Positions 25,013 to 64,000 of a stretch of 64,000 nucleotides of DNA are shown here, piece by piece. The notes below the pieces were generated by a model. That model searched no databases, was not told the DNA's origin, and saw only the letters and a program-made list of their open reading frames with translations. This DNA is from Eledone cirrhosa (lineage: Eukaryota): positions 26,908,001 through 26,972,000 of the forward strand of contig OZ024762.1 in NCBI GenBank assembly GCA_964016885.1, given 5' to 3'. Position numbers and translations under genes: made by a program. Positions within the stretch are counted from its first letter, which is position 1, and each line of letters opens with the position of its first letter.

Positions 25013-25152
25013 GTAAAGATAAGAATGTACAGCCGTACTAAGAGTGAGAAATGATATTTCACTTTTTCCATTCATATATATGTATATATATATGTATATA
25101 TAGAATAAGAAAAAGCGAAGTACTTTCAGATGTTAAAGTCTTTAATGATAGC

Positions 25153-25210
25153 GCTGTGATACATATTTCAAGGGCGACGGTGTGCCAGTGCCGCGACATC
25201 TTCAGACAGC
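25153..25210 (-). ncRNA. Type I hammerhead (left arm of inverted repeat 25103-25255 / 25571-25740)
   Basis: Minus strand: gctgt CTGAAGA tgtcgcgg..ccgtcgccctt GAAA tatgta TC acagc. Confidence 0.8.
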
Positions 25211-25615
25211 TTGTTACATATTAAGGTTATGTTTCCGAGGCAATCCAAATTGAATTGATCAATTCTACTGTCCCTGCTTAATTTAGGGTAGTATTGAGAC
25301 CTATTGATACTCATACTCTCCCAACCCCACTAGCTTTCGGCTGACTGCCACTGGCTGGGTGGCTAGCAGTAAGCTACATATTACAGGCTTGAATAGCTCA
25401 TTGTTTGGTTGAGAGAGGTAACTGCCTAGACGAATTTCGTAGAACTCTGCGGTAGATGATGGTCAACTTCCTTCGGACCTGCGCCTGCGCAGACCGGTGG
25501 GCGTGAATTGGTAGTCACAAGGGAACGGGCGAAGAACTCAAGAGCACACGCTTTATCCGTTCCCATGTCGATTCAATTTAGATTTTCTCGGAAACATAAC
25601 CTTATTCTTTAACAA

Positions 25616-25689
25616 GCTGTCTGACGATGTCGCGGCACTGGAGCACGGAACCGTGTGGCCACTGTGGCCATTGAAATATGTATCACAGC
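25616..25689 (+). ncRNA. Type I hammerhead (right arm)
   Basis: gctgt CTGACGA tgtcgcgg..ctgtggccatt GAAA tatgta TC acagc, with an AUC triplet. Confidence 0.8.
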
Positions 25690-25842
25690 ATTTTCATTAA
25701 AGGACTTTAACATCTGAAACTACTTCGCTTTTTCTTATTCGATATATACTCCGTCACTCCTATGTGGGATAAGTACGTTGAGTGCTTGAATTGAATTAAT
25801 CAATGTTTACCTTAAGTATATATATATATATATATATATATT

Positions 25843-29487: not shown

Positions 29488-30045
29488 CTCATGGTCCGGT
29501 CGTTGGCGACTAAACTGGCAACCCCACCAAGGTTTCTTGGTGAGGAGGGTGACTTTGGACATCCTGTAGGACTAAAAACAAAACCTGTCAAAGGGCAAAG
29601 GAGCTCTTAAGAGTCAATGACCATCCAAAATCACCGGGAGAGATGACCCCTTAGCCTTTGTCAAGGCAGAATTCTAGGAGAAGGAAAATTCTGATATAAC
29701 ACCTGCAACCCTGATGGTATCCAATGATGTTGACTTGTTCTTCTTTTTGGTAAATATCATCTTGGTTAAGAGAGTGGGACTGGCTTTGTGCAGTGCCTTT
29801 GCTCACTATAAAAGCTTCACGGCACAGGCATTGCTTTATATCTGGAGATCTCTCTGCACTTGTCGTCACATGGTACCATGGGCCCAGCACTATGTGTCAA
29901 TAATTGTCACAAGTGTAGTGTTTGTACCAGAGTTTTCAAATCGCTGACTGGACTAAAAAGCCACGCTCGTTCAGCGCATCGGTAGGGGTTCTCCTACATG
30001 GATATAAAGTAGTGGCCGTACTCGAAAACGAGTTGGCAACCACCA
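29488..30045 (+). mobile_element. ~550-bp bipartite non-autonomous RTE-derived element, copy 1
   Basis: The RTE-type 5' motif CTAGGAGAAGGAAAA(T/C)TCTG is joined to a 3' part encoding a terminal C2H2 finger ([22 protein letters not shown]). Flanked by (TA)n. Confidence 0.75.
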
Positions 30046-30302: not shown

Positions 30303-31108
30303 ATATGTATATATATATTGAGTTAAGAACTCAGGGTAGTCCCTTACAATTAAATAGCTCTAAGAAAAAAGATTTTCCGAGCCGTACAATATAATTGAAT
30401 AAACAAGAGAGATGAACAATAATATAAACATACATGTGTTCGAATCGTAAGGACTAACATTCAATCGAGATGTCCTTCATGCATTTGCTGTTGATTATGA
30501 GAACGGTTTCCTCAGATGAAGATCGATATATTTGATATGCCGCTGGCAGGGAAACAGCCATCCTAATGCCTGTGCGTCCAGCAGACATATGAGTTCTTTG
30601 AAGGGTTTGCCAGCCGTCGCGTTTGTTAGAAAAAGCTATCAACGAAAAATGACGAAAAGAACGATGAACCGTGTGCAACCAAAACCCAGTAGAGAGTTGA
30701 AGGAACACAAGGAGCTCTGAAGGGGGGGGGGTATATATTTAGTTGATGACCACCTATAGACAACAACAACAACGACAACGACAACTACAATAACAACAAT
30801 GACAATAACATCAAACCGCCGACCAAAGTTATCTACACTGGTCACAATAGTCGTGCTGATGCCAACACCCTATTGACAACAACAACAACTAAAACAACAG
30901 CTACAGTAAAAACACTTACAACGACAACAGCAACAAACAACAACAACAGCAAGAACACAGTCCAGCGTCGTGTATACAGGTCGTAATTAAAACAACGATT
31001 GTTGAGAGCTTTCTCCTGCTTACTCCTCTTTTTACCAAAACAATATTTTCCCAACACATACAGCTCCAGCACTGTTGAGCACTTTGAGAATAAGCGGCTG
31101 AAAATAGG

Positions 31109-33814
<2,706 letters not shown>

Positions 33815-34279: not shown

Positions 34280-34332
<53 letters not shown>

Positions 34333-34361
34333 AAAGAATAAAGGTGTAACACACAAGTTAT

Positions 34362-34758
34362 TATATATTGGTAAACGGAATAGAAAATGCTGACAAATTG
34401 TTCACAGTTGAAAAATGGTTTAATTAGGAATAAAAGAGTATTAGTGATTGTATGGGTTAGTATTCAGTTGTGGTTTTAAGTTTTTAAGTTTTTACCGGTT
34501 GCGCATTTCTAAATGCTTTTCAAAAATAATTTTGAGATAGAGTGTCCGTGCTGTTTGCTCTGATCAGAGCAAACAGCACGGATACTCTATCTCAAAATTA
34601 TTTTTGAAAAGCATTTAGAAATGCGCAACCGGTAAAAACTTAAAAACTTAAAACCACAACTGAATACTAACCCATACAATCACTAATACTCTTTTATTCC
34701 TAATTAAACCATTTTTCAACTGTGAACAATTTGTCAGCATTTTCTATTCCGTTTACCA

Positions 34759-34765
<7 letters not shown>
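34362..34765. repeat. 404-bp spacer-less palindrome
   Basis: Centre TGA|TCA at 34563/34564 with 202-bp arms. One mismatch seen (AGTGTCC vs GGATACT). Confidence 0.95.
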
Positions 34766-37144: not shown

Positions 37145-37539
37145 TGTTATTCTTTGGGAGGGTCATGTTGCCAATAAGAAACACACGCATCAGTTGCTTT
37201 CACTCCAATTTATTATAAAGTAAAAAAATTTTTAAAAACATTTTTTCAAAACATTCTTTTTTTTTTTTTTAGAAATATACGGTTGGTTGGTTCCCAAACC
37301 GGACGGTTGTTCATATATTGTCAAAGTTCTTTCGTCACACATTCTGTGACCTCTTCAGTGACTGGGGATTCTTTTCTTTGTTTTGTGCCTCTCCTTTGTT
37401 CTGTCCTACGCCATCTTGTTTTTGTGTGTGTGACACGGACAAGATTGCAAAAGTGTTCAACTAGCACCACTACGTTGCTAGTCCGTACAGTTTGAGGAAG
37501 GTTCCAGAAGATCTGTGTAGGCAGGTGCTAAAGAGGTTA

Positions 37540-37542
<3 letters not shown>
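37141..37542 (-). mobile_element. Solo pLTR of the 31.1-33.7 kb PLE family with hammerhead at 37320-37362
   Basis: Reverse complement of 33315-33717, with an identical hammerhead core. Confidence 0.92.
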
Positions 37543-39541: not shown

Positions 39542-39840
39542 TATATATAGAATATTTTAGTATCGTGAGAGAGTAGAGGTTTAAAGGGATAAGCGGTACA
39601 TATAGTTAGTTGCCAAAAGCTGGTGCATGTGTGCTCAATACTTGTGCCTACAGGGTTAAATATCAGAAGCGTTAATATTTAGAGGGCGAGAATATAAGCA
39701 GAGCGGTTACAAATGAAAGGATTACAAAGGAGAATACAGACTGTTAGAACATGTTTATACAAATGTATAAACATGTTCTAACAGTAAGTATTCTCCTTTG
39801 TAATCCTTTCATATGTATGTATATATATATATATATATAC

Positions 39841-40570: not shown

Positions 40571-40617
<47 letters not shown>

Positions 40618-40674
40618 GGAAAAAATGAAACGAAATATCATTTCCCACTCTTAGTACGGCTGTTATTTAAATAT

Positions 40675-40996
40675 AAGTATGTACGTGTACATACATATAT
40701 GTATACAGACGTACAGTAGTATGTATATATATATACATACATGCACACATATATATATGTACGTATGGATTCACCGAACATTTATTATAATGCTCGGTGT
40801 GTTTGTAAACAAACATCCCGTATTAAGCCGTAGTGTCCCGTATTATGCCGTAGATGGTTGCTGGACAAACACACCGAGCATTATAATAAATGTTCGGTGA
40901 ATCCATACGTACATATATATATGTGTGCATGTATGTATATAAATATACATACTACTGTACGTCTGTATGCATATATGTATGTACGTGTACATACTT
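40675..40996. repeat. Fold-back inverted repeat (~132-bp arms, ~58-bp spacer)
   Basis: ..GGATTCACCGAACATTTATTATAATGCTCGGTGTGTTTGT and its reverse complement. The spacer contains TCCCGTATTA(A/T)GCCGTAG twice. Confidence 0.92.
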
Positions 40997-41016
40997 TTAT
41001 ATATATATATATATAT

Positions 41017-41531
41017 ATATTGTTATACTTTGGGAGGGTCATGTTGCCAATAAGAAACACACGCACCAGTTGCTTTCACTTCAATTTATTATAATAAATT
41101 TATAAATTTCTGGTTGGTTGGTTGGTTGGTTCCACAACCAGATAGTTGTTTATATATTGTCAAAGTTCTTTCGTCACACATTATGTGACCTCTTCGGTGA
41201 CTGGGGATTCTTTTCTTTGTTTTTGTTCCTCTCCTTTGTTCTGTCCTACGCCATTTTGTTTCTGTGTGTGTCTCACAGAAACAAAATGGCGTAGGACAGA
41301 ACAAAGGAGAGGCACAAAAACAAAGAAAAGAATTCCCAGTCACTGAAGAGGTCACAGAATGTGTGACGAAAGAACTTTGACAATATATAAACAACTATCT
41401 GGTTGTGGAACCAACCAACCAGAAATTTATGAATTCCTAAATTTATAAATTTATTATAATAAATTGAAGTGAAAGCAACTGGTGCGTGTGTTTCTTATTG
41501 GCAACATGACCCTCCCAAAGTATAACAATAT
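41017..41531. mobile_element. Fold-back dimer of a PLE pLTR with two divergent hammerheads (41159-41201 minus, CCGAAGA; 41339-41381 plus, CTGAAGA)
   Basis: ~250-bp arms homologous to 33430-33717, with a 7-nt loop at 41267-41273. Confidence 0.92.
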
Positions 41532-41583
41532 CGGTTTCAACACACGTTTTCAGATAAAGAATCTTGCTAAAAAAATTCAGAAA

Positions 41584-41641
<58 letters not shown>

Positions 41642-46000: not shown

Positions 46001-48880
46001 CTTACAAGGACCAGGTCAACAATTTAGTTAAGAAAAAGTTAACAGGAGGAATCGTCAACAATAGATGGTGCGGGGCTCTCAAAAGAGAGATTAGAGTAAT
46101 GTCGATAGAGTTTAGCAAAGAAGTAGCGTTAGAGAAAAATAGAAAGAAGGGGGAGTTGGTAGATAAGTTAGACGAGACTATTGGTAGTGGCATTGCAACT
46201 GATGTACTAGCGGCGAGAATGGCATTAAACCATTTCTTCAATGCGAAACACGAAGGTTGCATTGTCAGAGCTAAGTCACGTGCTCTGAGAAACGAGGGAA
46301 CCAAAGCTGTTCGATGGGCCCGCGTGGCAGAGGCGCAGCGTGGTAATAAAACCACGATTCGGTCTTTGACGGACCGAGACGGGCACAAGCTGAGCGATTC
46401 CAAGAGGATGTGTGAGGGCTTTCGCTAACATTTTGCTCGGTTGTTCGGAGGAAGTGGCGGGTCAGTGATGGTGGCGGACTTCAGTCCCTACCTCGATGGC
46501 TTGCCGCAACTCTCGACGGCTGAAGCTGGGCGCTGCGAAAGGCCAATTACTTCAGCCGAGATTCAGGATGCCCTTGTCGGCTGCATGAGGCGCAAGTCAC
46601 CCGGTTTGGATGGTCTGCCCTACGAGCGTTACGTAAATATGACAGAGTTGTTCTCCAATCTCCTCGAAGCCCTCTACTGCAACTGGCAGCAAAACGGGAG
46701 TATTCCCAGTTCTGTGAACCGAGGCGTAGTGACGCTGATAAGGAAAGACGATAACAAAAGGGACACATTAGACAATTTCAGGCCCATAACCTTGCTCAAC
46801 ACAGAGTTTAAGATTTTGGCCAGGGTGTGGCGCTTGTCGTCGGGGATTTGGTGAGGGAGGCACAAACTTGCGCAATCCCAACCAGGTCCATACACGACAA
46901 CCTCCACCTAATGCGATACATCATAGAGAGGGTGGGGTGTAAACCTGGCTTCGGTGGGGCTCTGATCAATTTAGATCAATCGAAAGCATTCGATAGTGTC
47001 GACCATCGGTACCTGGAGGCTGTCCTCAAGGCGGCTGGCTTCGGCCCCGTCTTCAGAAGCTGGATCGCTGCAATGCACAGCGGCACCTGCTCGATGGTCA
47101 AAATTAATGGCCACCTCTCGGAACCGTTTCAGGTCTCCCGATCGGTCCGTCAAGGGTGCCCTCTCTCCTCCCTTCTATACGTATTGACTCTCGAGCCTTT
47201 ACTGCGGAAGCTGGAGCTGTTGCAGGGCATCCCGCTCGAAGCGGGACGCGGAAAGGTTGTGTCGGCTTATGCGGACGACATCACCGTGATGGTGTCGGAC
47301 ACCTCAGAAATCGAGGTGGTCGGAAACTTATTGAAAGGTTGACGGGAGCAAAACTTAAACCGGAAATGTCAGTGGGCTTGCAACTCGGCACCTGGAGAGG
47401 CAAGTCCATGCCTTCCAACAGCATCGTTAGGCGCAGGACGGACGGACCGGTAAAGTTGCTAGGGGTTTGGTTCGGGCCAGACCTCCAGGTGGATAAGAAT
47501 TGGGACGAGATGACGGGCAGGGTAGTCAGTCTCACCCAGAAATGGGCTGGGATGAAGCTATCACTGAAAGGTCGGACGGAGGTGGCGAACGCGTACATCG
47601 CGTCCGTCATCTACTACCGTCTGACTGTCGTCCCTTTCCCCCGTTCGCGCCTCGCCATCTTGGAGCGGCTCCTCCTAAAATTCTTGTGGAGGGGTCAGGT
47701 TCCGCTGGTGAGGCGGTCCATCTACGGCCAGCACCCTCTACGTGGACGGCTGGGCATGCCGTGGATAATGATGCGCAGACACGCGCTGAAGCTACGGCAT
47801 CTCCGGATAATCTGCCTAAACGGTGAACAGGTGTGGTCGTCGTTTGTCAGACGGGCCTTTCCGCAGCTCGTTTCTTTGACTGAGTTGCAGTCCTGGGTCA
47901 AGAAGAGACCGAGACTGGGTGACTGGCATCTGGAATGTTGCCAGGCCTCACTGCCCTCTACCAGGCGGGCAATGCGGTCAGTGGAACTTCCACTCTCGAG
48001 TTCTATAGAGGATTAGTGGTGGGCAAGTGCGACGACGCACATGAGTGGCTCTGGGAGGAAACGAAGTCGAACTAACCAGTCTGTACCGGAGGACTTTCGA
48101 GCCGGGGACGATGGATAATTTCCAAAAATCCCTCGCTTGGCAGTGTTACCGGGGGGCACTGCCGGTTCGAGGTAAACTCTACAGGCACGGAAGTGCGGTC
48201 AGACAGACCTGCCCGAGACGCGCGCAGAGCGACGAAACCGTTCTGCACGCACTCGTCCAGTGTCCGTGCATTACTGACTTGTGGAGTTATGTTGAACAGC
48301 TGTTGTCGCGTGTAGACCGGATCCGGCTATCGGCCGAGTCCATAGTGAAGATCGACCCGCCGCCTTCTTTTGGCCAGGAAGGGCAGGCAATTTTCCTCTA
48401 TCCGGTGGCAGTAGCGAAAGAGGTTGTATGGTGGACGAGGTGGAAAGGACTGAAGACAGACACTTTTCTCTTCGGCCAATCCCTCATCAACTTTTTCAAG
48501 TTTCTCTTCAGTACATTTGCTGAAAGGTGGGTGAATGTGGCGAGAATGGCCCGTGTGAGTGGGCCTACTCTGGTCATGCGGCTGTGGGTAATTAAAATTT
48601 GAAGAGGAGATGGGTGCCCTTCCAGAGTGCTCTCGAAGCGTCGGGTCGTTCAGGACTGGTGGGGTACCTGAGCGAACCCTAGGTGGTCATCCCCCCAATT
48701 GGGGAACTTTTTCTTGTAATTTTATTGTTACTTTATTGTTACTTTGTTATTGTTACTTTGTTATTGTTACTTTGTTATTGTTATTCATATTGTTTGATCG
48801 ATTTTTCTGTAAAACCCCACTGTCCCAGTCTTTTGTATTGTCCCCTATATGTCGGCCCTTGTGGCCAATAAATGAAATCA
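43030..48880 (+). mobile_element. Near full-length Tx1/L1-clade LINE, ORF2 disrupted
   Basis: ORF1, then ORF2 pieces with APE (VRGL, SETR, VYAP, AGDWNG, SDH, GYWKLN), RT (KSPGLDGLP, NFRPITLLN, LDQSKAFD, QGCPLS, YADD) and a terminal CP..ETVLHALVQC. Ends CCCTTGTGGCCAATAAA. (TTA)n on both sides. Confidence 0.93.
43549..45204 (+). CDS. Tx1-type ORF1 (gag-like, Thr/Pro-rich linker); probably carries indels
   Basis: 551-aa ORF directly upstream of the APE ORF. Confidence 0.7.
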   Translation: MATKTTMITATVLTTTPTRKTTTTLPTKTRRTLSLRQQQKKRPCFNMDLSNKDEKLAQAWKLIKQEQTWANLTVPVEAIEAVERKTVHYRCIPAQTERAALIPQEYVEVALRCIGEDTQYIERGRQYGTISVLFKSEALAMKYAMTPCKTSKVIMYPSHMGKRTIPRIPPGLDMWWLLGCVIVEGTDTVPIEVTRTAREDWSGVDLEILLQIRPENVKTIPDHIRLQNGTVIHIMTEGKRPQCLWRKNPFASLLPSTAERGKGSKGSTAADAGARTTTNTSTGKTTNNNTNRKTTTNIYHPGRKRGMLSNSTSPQNTHTNKTINIHTDTLTDTDSSSTSSENEGNPKSPKIQKKEHKEKKKTQQSTKAPIIKNADTTHANISPITPTSTPPSSSPESPKRKQPIQMQEQIYTQTSETTDTALTTNTDTTETTPPKPSPPQPRKQIKSHQQNIQNFVLVRMANKELMALVARSENIKKEGEIFKSSTFRVPEDLVLVRMSLDIFKEIRDSFPRNVGTPNVKPTSRLLKGFPKETPLTMEVEQPDLHKSPEGK

Positions 48881-61765: not shown

Positions 61766-64000
61766 TGTTTCTTTTATTTGCCACTAGGGCATCAAAAGTG
61801 GGACAAGTACAAAGGGGGGAGTTTACACAAAAAGGCGTCCTCAATAAGGAGGAGGCAATAACAAAATATAAAAATAAAATAAGATATAACAAAAAATAAA
61901 ATTTTTAACAAAATCCTCAATAGAGAGGAGGCGCCTTGGGGGGTCGCACACACCCCCGAAAAAAGTGTGCAACCCTTCTCCTCAGGAGCACAGAGAAGGG
62001 GTGCTCCCTTGGTCTTTCATCTTCCTCACCTATAGTCTGATGTAGAGTGAAGGCCCATTCACACGGGCCATTCTCGCCACTTTCACCCATCTTTCATAGA
62101 AACGGCTGGGGTGCAGCACCTCTCTCTCCATCCTGATCCTTCTTCCGAAATGATATCGGAAGAAACGGACCAGTTGTTGGCCAGAGAGAAAGGTGCCTGA
62201 CCTCAGTCCTTTCAGACGCGTCCACCATACAACCTCTTTCGCCATGGCTATTACGCACAGAAACACCGCCTCTGCTTCATCTTTGAAGGGGGGAGGCGGC
62301 TTGATCATTACAATAGACTCGGTGGTCAACCGGATCGGTCCCACCCTTGACAGCAGTTGTTCGACATAGCCCCACAGATCGGCTACGCCCGAGCAGTGTA
62401 CCAATGCGTGTGCAACGGTTTCCTTGTCGCACACGCATCTGGGACAGATCTTTTTGGCGGGGTCCCTACCCGGGCGCCCGTGTCTGTAGAGCCTTTCTCG
62501 AACGGGTAAAGCCCCTCGGTAGCACTGCCAGGCCAGGGACTTCTGGAAGTTGTCCATAGGTCCCGGGCTGAATGTCCTACCGAACAGGCTGGCCAGTTCG
62601 TCCTCCTCCATGTCTAGGGCTTCTCCGAGGGCGTCGTCGCACCTGCTGCGTACCAGCCCTCTATAGAATGTTGCGGTGGAGTCTCCACTGATAACCGGAT
62701 CCGCCTGCCAGAGGGCGGTGAGCTCCCGGGCACACTCAGTGTGCCAGGCGCCCAGTTTTCTCGGTCTTTGCTTGACCCAGGATTGCAGCTCGGTGAGTGA
62801 GACGAGTCTGGGAAAGGTTCGTCTCACAAACGAGGCCCACACCGGTTGTCCGGTGAGGAATACGTAGAGGTGCCGTAGCCTTAATGCGTGTTTACGCATC
62901 ATTAGCCACGGCATCCCCAGCCCTCCTTTCGAAGGGTGTTGACAGCAGATGGATCTCCTCACCATAGGAGCCCGCCTCTTCCAAAGGAATTGGAAGAGCG
63001 CGCGCTCCATCTTGGTGAGGGTTTCCCTTGGGCAGGGCACTACGGTCAGGCGGTAGTAGATGACGGACGCTATGTAGGTGTTCGCCACCTCCGCCCGACC
63101 TTTCAGGGATAGTTTGCAACTGGCCCACTTCTGGGTCAGTGCAAACACCCTGTTCGTAACCTCCGCCCAGTTTTTCTCCACCTGGAGGTCCGGTCCGAAC
63201 CAGACCCCGAGCAACTTCACCGGGCCCTCCATCCAGCGTCCGACGACGCCATCGGAGGGCATCGGTCTGCCCCTCCACGTGCCGAGTTGCAAACCGATCG
63301 ACTTGTCCCGGTTCAGCTTAGCCCCTGTGAACTTTTCGTACGCCTCCAGTAAGGTGCCGACCGCCTCGATTTCGGAGGCCGTCGACACCATTACTGTCAC
63401 GTCATCGGCGTAGGCCGACACCGCTTTCCGCAATCCCGGTTCCAAAGGGATGCCCTGCAACAACTCCAACTTCCGCAGTAGTGGCTCTAGAGTCAACACA
63501 TACAGAAGGGAGGAGAGAGGGCACCCTTGTCGGATGGACCGCGCGATTTTGAACGGCTCCGAGAGGTAGCCGTTCACCTTGACCCTAGAGCAGATGCGGC
63601 TGCTGTGCATAGCAGTGATCCAGCCCCTGAAAACGGGTCCGAAGCCTGCCGCCGCTAGCACCGCATCCAGGTAACCATGGTCGACCCTATCGAACGCCTT
63701 AGATTGATCCAAGTTGATCAGAGCCCCACCAAAGCCGGGTTCGTTCCCAACCCTCTCTATGATGTATCGCATGAGGTGGAGGTTGTCATGGATGGACCTG
63801 GACGGGATAGCGCATGTCTGCGCATCTCCCACCAGGTTGCCCACGACAAGCGCCAACCTCTTTGCTAGCACCTTGGCCAAAATCTGTAACTCTGTATTTA
63901 GCAGTGTTATGGGCCTGAAGTTACTTATTTCGTCCCCCTTGTTCTCGTCCTTCCTCACTAGCGTGACTACGCCCTTGGTCACAGTACAGGGAATTCTCCC
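61765..64000 (-). mobile_element. Tx1/L1-clade LINE, 3' part; continues beyond the window
   Basis: Homologous to 46700-48880. The 3' end runs into (TATC)n. Confidence 0.95.
62030..63982 (-). CDS. Tx1-type ORF2 reverse transcriptase and zinc finger (partial, open frame)
   Basis: 650 aa without a stop: NFRPITLLN, LDQSKAFD, QGCPLS, YADD, KGGLG and CPRC..ETVAHALVHC. Confidence 0.92.
   Translation of the reverse strand: MTKGVVTLVRKDENKGDEISNFRPITLLNTELQILAKVLAKRLALVVGNLVGDAQTCAIPSRSIHDNLHLMRYIIERVGNEPGFGGALINLDQSKAFDRVDHGYLDAVLAAAGFGPVFRGWITAMHSSRICSRVKVNGYLSEPFKIARSIRQGCPLSSLLYVLTLEPLLRKLELLQGIPLEPGLRKAVSAYADDVTVMVSTASEIEAVGTLLEAYEKFTGAKLNRDKSIGLQLGTWRGRPMPSDGVVGRWMEGPVKLLGVWFGPDLQVEKNWAEVTNRVFALTQKWASCKLSLKGRAEVANTYIASVIYYRLTVVPCPRETLTKMERALFQFLWKRRAPMVRRSICCQHPSKGGLGMPWLMMRKHALRLRHLYVFLTGQPVWASFVRRTFPRLVSLTELQSWVKQRPRKLGAWHTECARELTALWQADPVISGDSTATFYRGLVRSRCDDALGEALDMEEDELASLFGRTFSPGPMDNFQKSLAWQCYRGALPVRERLYRHGRPGRDPAKKICPRCVCDKETVAHALVHCSGVADLWGYVEQLLSRVGPIRLTTESIVMIKPPPPFKDEAEAVFLCVIAMAKEVVWWTRLKGLRSGTFLSGQQLVRFFRYHFGRRIRMEREVLHPSRFYERWVKVARMARVNGPSLYIRL

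Follow-up and report, generated by a model that had tools for sequence, protein, structure and literature searches.

The closest described systems are the endonuclease-bearing PLEs studied by Craig et al. 2021, which have an inverted 5'-truncated copy beside the 5' end, often a tail at one end only, and (TA)n targets (PMC8557442). In that work the tail is ascribed to endonuclease resolution, the mechanism producing the inverted repeats is stated to be undefined, and the Neptune/Nematis group is defined by a CX2-5CxxC finger between RT and endonuclease. In Schistosoma, PLE remnants contain dual minimal hammerheads on opposite strands about 100-700 bp apart (Cervera and de la Pena 2014, PMC4209133). 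For the Poseidon element of Anolis, Frangieh et al. 2024 report that in vitro both strands are cut and extended by the PLE, which initiates at two neighbouring internal positions delimiting the tail, with hammerhead cleavage being dispensable; the joining of two cDNAs into a palindrome is not addressed in the sections of that study considered here (PMC11167929). As for RNA editing, ADAR hyper-editing of repeats is reported to include lizard Penelope RNA, octopus and a palindromic Harbinger (Porath et al. 2017, PMC5625713), and an A-to-G-hypermutated avian retroviral LTR and inverted repeat was carried into DNA by reverse transcription (PMC12925331). The APOBEC editing treated in PMC2873906 and PMC4866542 is G-to-A and so different from the A-to-G changes described below.

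Here we report the analysis of a palindrome in the genome of Eledone cirrhosa, located in a stretch of 64,000 nucleotides (contig OZ024762.1, positions 26,908,001 to 26,972,000; hereafter the window). We read the palindrome as two 5'-truncated copies, arranged head to head, of a Neptune-like PLE, with a 58-nt tail on one arm. The pair was probably made in one insertion, in which both nicked (TA)n ends primed a single RNA at two fixed sites with 58 nt between them.

The focal fold-back and its parent element

Compared with its own reverse complement, the sequence 41017-41531 has 92.5% identity over 523 columns (23 mismatches and 4 gaps, both arms summed), and RNAfold predicts a single long hairpin with a 7-nt loop at 41267-41273 and -415.5 kcal/mol, so the palindrome and loop given in the preliminary description are real. 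This inverted repeat is far beyond chance, yet far from unique in the genome; the assembly around the window is 3.0 Gb in size and microsatellite-rich. The left arm (41019..41271, minus strand) is a 5'-truncated 3' end (pLTR) of a Neptune-like PLE with 93-96% identity to other genomic copies, and the right arm (41274..41529, plus strand) is a 5'-truncated copy of the same pLTR, with 96-97% identity to other copies over arm and tail. According to the fold and the junction analysis, the loop and the junction lie inside a CA-rich tract, where the two bases 41272-41273 belong to neither arm, and the junction 33-mer occurs once in the whole assembly. The arms are 4-5 substitutions and two indels apart, some of these at recurrent family alleles.

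On both sides the pair is flanked by (TA)n target sequence, at 40998..41019 on the left and 41586..41638 on the right. The left arm is tail-less and passes straight into (TA)n, whereas the right arm has 58 nt more before (TA)n, namely a tail (41530..41587, plus strand) that is common to many loci. The palindrome was earlier drawn as ending at 41531, and this boundary has to be moved, as the right arm goes on into a family tail missing from the left arm. The end of the left arm would be priming site 1 and the end of the tail priming site 2; AATAT is the motif in which the pLTR and the tail alike terminate. Across the pLTR end and the tail, 41506..41586 (plus strand) likely holds the start codon and the first 27 codons of the parent ORF, as suggested by translation and by the frame running into the ORF N-terminus at another locus (L083). 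The earlier remark that the palindrome has no ORF is thus right in that there is no coding unit, and incomplete in that this ORF beginning was overlooked. As the tail sequence leads on into the ORF N-terminus at L083, the tail is a piece of the ORF start.

Inverted truncated partners, one-sided tails and opposite-strand hammerhead pairs have already been described for PLEs, and the focal locus is therefore an ordinary PLE insertion product of a known kind, not a MITE family. With the PLEs of PMC8557442 it has in common the inverted truncated partner, the one-sided tail, the (TA)n targets and the CX2-5CxxC linker of Neptune/Nematis.

The arms had been derived in their entirety from the pLTR belonging to the PLE at 31.1-33.7 kb, which our comparison contradicts. 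Actually, they have only 78-82% identity, with gaps, to 33418-33717, against 93-97% to other genomic copies, and in all 24 other copies fetched of the 31.1-33.4 kb ORF family the 3' UTR is different and without a focal-type arm. We accordingly reject the focal-type arm as the native pLTR of that PLE (0 of 24 other copies end in such sequence), and also a pLTR common to two PLE clades, as other copies of the neighbouring ORF family end in a different 3' UTR. The absence from all 24 copies shows 33424..33713 (plus strand) to be a foreign piece, namely an older arm without tail that comes from the Neptune-like family and has been joined to an unrelated PLE ORF at its 3' end. An inverted second copy of the chimeric junction (33315-33713) lies at 37145..37542 (minus strand) with 93-95% identity and the same junction, so that the chimera of decayed PLE ORF and foreign tail-less arm (31060-33713; 37145-37542) is present in two inverted, convergent copies. 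It may have arisen by a template switch between two PLE RNAs or by an insertion followed by local duplication. A Pfam search of the neighbouring PLE's frames gave no relevant match, its PLE identity coming from motifs read by eye.

Judged from the sequences compared, the parent of the focal arms is a different, very abundant Neptune-like PLE. Other copies of the focal arm extend upstream into a single ORF having RT, a CX4CxxC finger and then a GIY-YIG-type endonuclease motif, the arrangement of PLEs with C-terminal endonuclease. Pieces of this ORF (L105, L093, L095, L097, L103) have YVDD, and also a VVY...YIGET motif that contains two Cys and two His; Pfam gives an RVT_1 match with E 7e-5, below its cut-off, and no GIY-YIG match. 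The parent also has further features of PLEs, namely a pLTR overlapping the ORF start, partial tandem arrangement, an optional tail and an inverted 5'-truncated partner. The finger, located upstream of the endonuclease motif, fits the CX2-5CxxC of the Neptune/Nematis group, and from this finger, the (TA)n targeting and general features of the group we tentatively take the parent to be Neptune-like.

As the preliminary description stated, there is one hammerhead per strand. The right-arm motif (41339..41381, plus strand), read from the sequence against the description in PMC4209133, is by inspection a minimal type I hammerhead with intact core, having CUGAnGA and GAAA boxes, an extra base after A9, G10.1-C11.1, stems I and II and a short stem III of 2 bp, with a weak CUU triplet. 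The left-arm motif (41159..41201, minus strand) departs from the minimal type I at U4, which is changed to C, and is likely inactive as far as its sequence tells. This change is the CTGAAGA versus CCGAAGA arm difference pointed out before, and at this site the family alleles are T in 62 and C in 11. The extra base after A9, the short stem I and the unstable stem III needing a dimer are as in the Schistosoma hammerheads, while the 6-bp stem II, the CUU triplet of the focal subfamily and the mutated left core are unlike the Schistosoma pairs (PMC4209133). The proposal that the transcript would be a long hairpin sequestering its ribozyme agrees with the predicted fold, which buries the single sense hammerhead. 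Rfam shows no hammerhead among 150 listed of the 313 window matches and none on the homologous 33400-33720, and its miRNA matches are dismissed as generic hairpin matches below the gathering score. Hammerhead cleavage is also not supported as the cause of truncation. None of 48 arms ends within 155-165 nt of site 1, where a hammerhead cut would stop the cDNA, and 31 run past it, which indicates that the templates were uncleaved and that the hammerheads would be passengers of the pLTR.

Two related observations concern ribozymes elsewhere in the family. In the younger-looking L105-type subfamily the triplet is CUA and stem I has 5 bp, against CUU and 4 bp in the focal subfamily, and the ribozyme thus looks better; and at L115:1468-2198 about six tandem 70-nt units with the hammerhead core only resemble a small retrozyme-like array. 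The window further includes a decayed LINE that encodes endonuclease, RT and, at the C-terminus, a PHD finger (5051-8118, minus strand), a long inverted pair of 73% identity with several ORFs (46696-48479 and 62177-64000; no Pfam match in the two frames tested), and a dispersed repeat of 500-550 nt in four copies of 89-96% (29488-30044, 51309-51826, 55039-55544 and 57372-57928).

Fold-backs and A-to-G changes across the genome

On the whole, the Neptune-like 3' end has 21,806 exact matches to a 35-nt pattern genome-wide and the tailed end 11,695, a ratio of about one half that is only rough because the two counts use different patterns. The suggested search for further fold-backs of this arm finds 600 loci with a fold-back pattern near the focal fold point and 0 with a control pattern; fold-backs similar to the focal one thus number at least 600 in the genome. 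Among the first 100 ends, neighbouring ends at most 6 kb apart are head-to-head in 26 cases, tail-to-tail in 2 and tandem in 2. Comparison of the fold points shows that junction cores mostly differ, with 45 distinct among 51 and 5 recurring, at least two of the latter being local duplicates.

These results do not support a 'MITE-like' family amplified from one palindrome, as had been supposed, since 45 of 51 cores are distinct, the focal junction is unique and there is no terminal-inverted-repeat transposase logic. Some MITEs are palindromic, and the focal fold-back is like them in this, but in its family the junctions vary between copies, and the copies are made by an RT. A MITE proper, with uniform copies, fixed terminal inverted repeats and a transposase, is moreover rejected by arms of 38-3,812 nt and by a tail that makes the termini asymmetric. 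Non-LTR retrozymes (bioRxiv 10.64898/2026.07.22.740005) are likewise short, non-coding, pLTR-derived and equipped with hammerheads, but consist of head-to-tail tandem hammerhead units, whereas the arrangement here is head-to-head with opposite-strand hammerheads, and they are rejected as well.

Fold-backs of other families are also present in the window. One of an unrelated family abuts the focal one at 40614-41007 (arms 40664-41007, 88%); it has about 50 extra nt on the left side only, like a one-sided tail, and its ends recur beside (TA)n at other loci. Further inverted repeats are located at 34330-34765 (99.5%), 17851-18427 (98.8%), 25094-25749 (82%) and 39708-39817 (93%), with about 30 extra nt on one side at 34362-34765. 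They probably represent the same insertion geometry in other PLE families.

Hyper-edited copies were sought with two patterns, each requiring two A>G changes, which gave 8 and 10 matches at 15 loci in total. Among them, 10 loci have an arm with 10 or more A>G changes at non-polymorphic sites and no more than 2 T>C; L112, L115 and L150 are not hyper-edited, and L142 and L145 have 5 changes only. The T>C control patterns gave 1 match (not hyper-edited), 0, and 6 matches at 5 loci, of which 2 are hyper-edited. At the 10 hyper-edited loci the A>G changes lie mostly from about 270 to 100 nt upstream of site 1. The family thus shows the clustered, strand-specific A-to-G changes characteristic of ADAR hyper-editing fixed in DNA. 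The edited share by 5' neighbour is 0.52 for A, 0.37 for T, 0.20 for C and 0.18 for G, and by 3' neighbour 0.43 for G against 0.31-0.33 for the others. These shares fit the neighbour preference of ADAR, and a restriction to duplex is seen in L165, described next.

Two fold-backs are mirror-edited. In L163 the tailed arm has A>G at 16 of 128 sites and the tail-less arm T>C at 29 of 53, and in L165 the corresponding figures are 23 of 54 and 15 of 81, with the T>C of the tail-less arm at 14 of 42 paired sites versus 1 of 39 unpaired. Because the A>G of the tailed arm and the T>C of its tail-less partner both mean A-to-G on the hairpin transcript, L163 and L165 are likely whole fold-back RNAs, edited as duplex and copied from the tail; the confinement of T>C to the paired part in L165 argues against cDNA editing in a DNA:RNA hybrid. 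It is thus likely, from these two sequences, that fold-back hairpins are transcribed, ADAR-edited and copied back whole. The focal locus itself is unedited (T>C at 1 of 46 and A>G at 1 of 94 sites), so the earlier ADAR idea holds up for the family, through two mirror-edited fold-backs elsewhere, and finds no footprint in the DNA of the locus for which it was put forward.

Edited copies are rare, being found in 1 of 70 pairs and, as a lower bound, at a dozen loci among some ten thousand insertions. Differences shared by the arms comprise 41 A>G, 23 of them from L083, versus 12 T>C; without L083 they are 18 versus 12, which given the base composition is no general A>G excess. The dense strand-specific A-to-G in duplex RNA is like that in PMC5625713 and PMC12925331, and unlike there the changes here stand in assembled chromosomal copies of an endogenous retrotransposon, together with mirror-edited hairpin copies. 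Our search of the open-access literature found no report of such edited chromosomal retro-copies. In addition, two tail-less convergent arms 10 kb apart, L143 and L144 (G000:C2:324750436 and 324760534), have the same 22 A>G changes, and in the endonuclease region of a young subfamily (L081, L087, L094, L097) a cluster of A/G sites gives K/R, I/V and N/S differences, of the kind that editing produces.

One tail per pair and the origin of the pairs

From 105 loci we obtained 71 head-to-head pairs in 70 loci, leaving out 35 loci without a recognisable end pair; L045 and L046 in this set are local duplicates. The tail is on exactly one arm in 68 of the 71 pairs (one interrupted), on both arms in 2 and on neither in 1 (p 5e-17 against 50%), and in L083, one of the two two-tail cases, an arm runs into a tandem unit. 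Pairs chosen irrespective of the fold point give the same picture, with the tail on one arm in 24 of 26. Of these 24, 11 have a tail-less arm that exceeds the tailed one, 10 show the reverse, and in 3 the two are equal (within 5 nt). The one-sided tail is thus near-obligate here (68/71) and 58 nt long, unlike the PLEs of PMC8557442 with their 30-40 nt tails. At polymorphic positions the arms of a pair agree in 508 of 514 calls and disagree in 6, against 45.5% disagreement in shuffled pairs. In A>G-rich pairs, too, most changes are shared between the arms, the shared and private numbers being 27 and 1 in L083, 23 and 4 in L110, 25 and 8 in L111, 10 and 2 in L113, and 5 and 0 in L145. The pattern of L083 is confined to its own two arms, and an edited master subfamily behind it is rejected on this ground.

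The one-tail rule, the fact that either arm may be longer, the arm concordance and the shared changes of the A>G-rich pairs together favour priming at two ends on one RNA over snap-back. Both nicked ends of the (TA)n target would prime reverse transcription on one RNA, at the two AATAT sites, whose motif could pair with the 3' end of a TA-repeat. One cDNA would start at each site and stop independently of the other, and their 3' ends would then be joined with little or no homology. In the focal case both cDNAs would stop in the CA-rich tract about 260 nt upstream, giving a near-perfect palindrome. LINE-1 twin priming is comparable, in that both target ends prime one RNA and an inversion results, but there the internal site at which the second primer anneals varies, and the two parts have no overlap; in the present case the starts are at fixed sites near the 3' end, and the arms therefore overlap and form palindromes. 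A literature search for twin priming applied to PLEs found nothing. The tail is ascribed to endonuclease resolution in PMC8557442; our data point to two priming sites on one RNA. The Anolis Poseidon element is similar in having the ORF start inside the pLTR and, as tail, ORF-start sequence between two RT start sites, and the two-strand cutting and two start sites found for it in vitro agree with priming from both ends; it differs in belonging to another clade and in a start site that is not target-homologous, whereas the motif at both sites here could pair with (TA)n (PMC11167929). Against our reading stand the substitutions and indels between the focal arms and the weak correlation of arm lengths in pairs (rho 0.38, p 0.07).

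The making of the palindrome by retrotransposition, as first proposed, is supported. The proposal of a simple snap-back fares worse, as it meets a one-sided tail with either arm the longer. In a fuller version, which we consider unlikely but the most serious of the alternatives, a tail-primed cDNA folds back, is copied as DNA to AATAT at site 1 and joins the other target end, and later central deletions shorten either arm. One tail, concordant arms and shared A>G changes would follow from it equally well, several junctions lie at natural short palindromes and are symmetric (L081b, L086), and the focal pair is itself nearly symmetric. Long palindromes lose central DNA, and a one-sided central deletion after snap-back would give one tail, identical arms and either arm shorter, although our literature search on such loss found nothing. 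The lengths speak against it. Among the 24 unselected pairs, 11 have the greater length on the side without tail, several of them by hundreds to 2,000 nt with the tailed arm still reference-identical (L096, L100, L103), so that frequent large one-sided deletions soon after insertion are needed. At L110, L111 and L113 it is the tailed arm that is shorter, a result that the fold-back of one tailed cDNA cannot give directly. Two start sites have, besides, been seen in vitro for another PLE (PMC11167929).

The second alternative, to which we give a distinctly small chance, is that the hairpin transcript of an earlier fold-back was copied again in full, starting at the tail, the palindrome being a non-autonomous unit; this comes closest to the 'MITE-like' description. 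L163 and L165 do carry the footprint of a recopied hairpin RNA, and 5 junction cores recur among the 51; as two loci show a whole fold-back recopied, some pairs, possibly the focal one, may inherit rather than create their shape. For the focal locus, however, the unique junction and the unedited arms speak against it, and for the family the 45 distinct cores and the local duplication behind at least two of the repeats. It is very improbable that the two ends primed on different RNA molecules: the focal arms do differ at indel and substitution alleles found elsewhere in the family, and the Anolis protein has been modelled as a dimer (PMC11167929), but the one-tail rule, the 508/514 concordance and the locus-private shared edits are left unexplained. 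That the fold-back is a library or assembly artefact is hardly credible, since, although none of the contigs (fragmented) and reads listed from public runs bridges the exact focal junction, the arms differ by substitutions and indels, the one-sided tail is rule-like, the junctions vary, and the X1 and X2 contigs, which may come from the assembly's own sample, hold antisense-to-sense joints of the Neptune-like family at depths of about 10-290.

Meaning for the PLE family

Returning to the priming of one RNA from both target ends, a locus made in this way and then transcribed would give a hairpin that is ADAR-edited and occasionally recopied whole from its tail by the PLE enzyme; DNA footprints of such a recopied, edited hairpin are present at two other loci and not at the focal one. 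We see a somewhat better than even chance for the wider picture, in which PLE twin priming continually seeds fold-backs, whose hairpins are ADAR-hyper-edited in their paired part and then copied whole from the tail, or, via the duplex, edited element RNA is inserted anew. RNA edits would in this manner enter the inherited DNA, destroy the hammerhead core, mark individual RNA molecules like a barcode and so expose the inverted-repeat mechanism, and they may also supply subfamily variation.

To what is known of PLEs the family adds a one-tail rule with counts behind it, a model of priming at two sites that can be tested, and hairpin retro-copies with mirror edits. According to PMC8557442 it is not settled how PLEs come by their inverted repeats and one-sided tails. 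The young pairs, in their thousands, together with the nearly strict rule of one tail and the barcodes left by RNA editing, now give a specific model, which can be put to the existing in vitro PLE system. The mirror-edited fold-backs provide evidence, at the level of DNA, for transcription of such hairpins where insertions are passed on to offspring, for their being substrates of ADAR and for their return into the genome, and they link the insertion geometry of a retrotransposon to the double-stranded RNA load of the genome.
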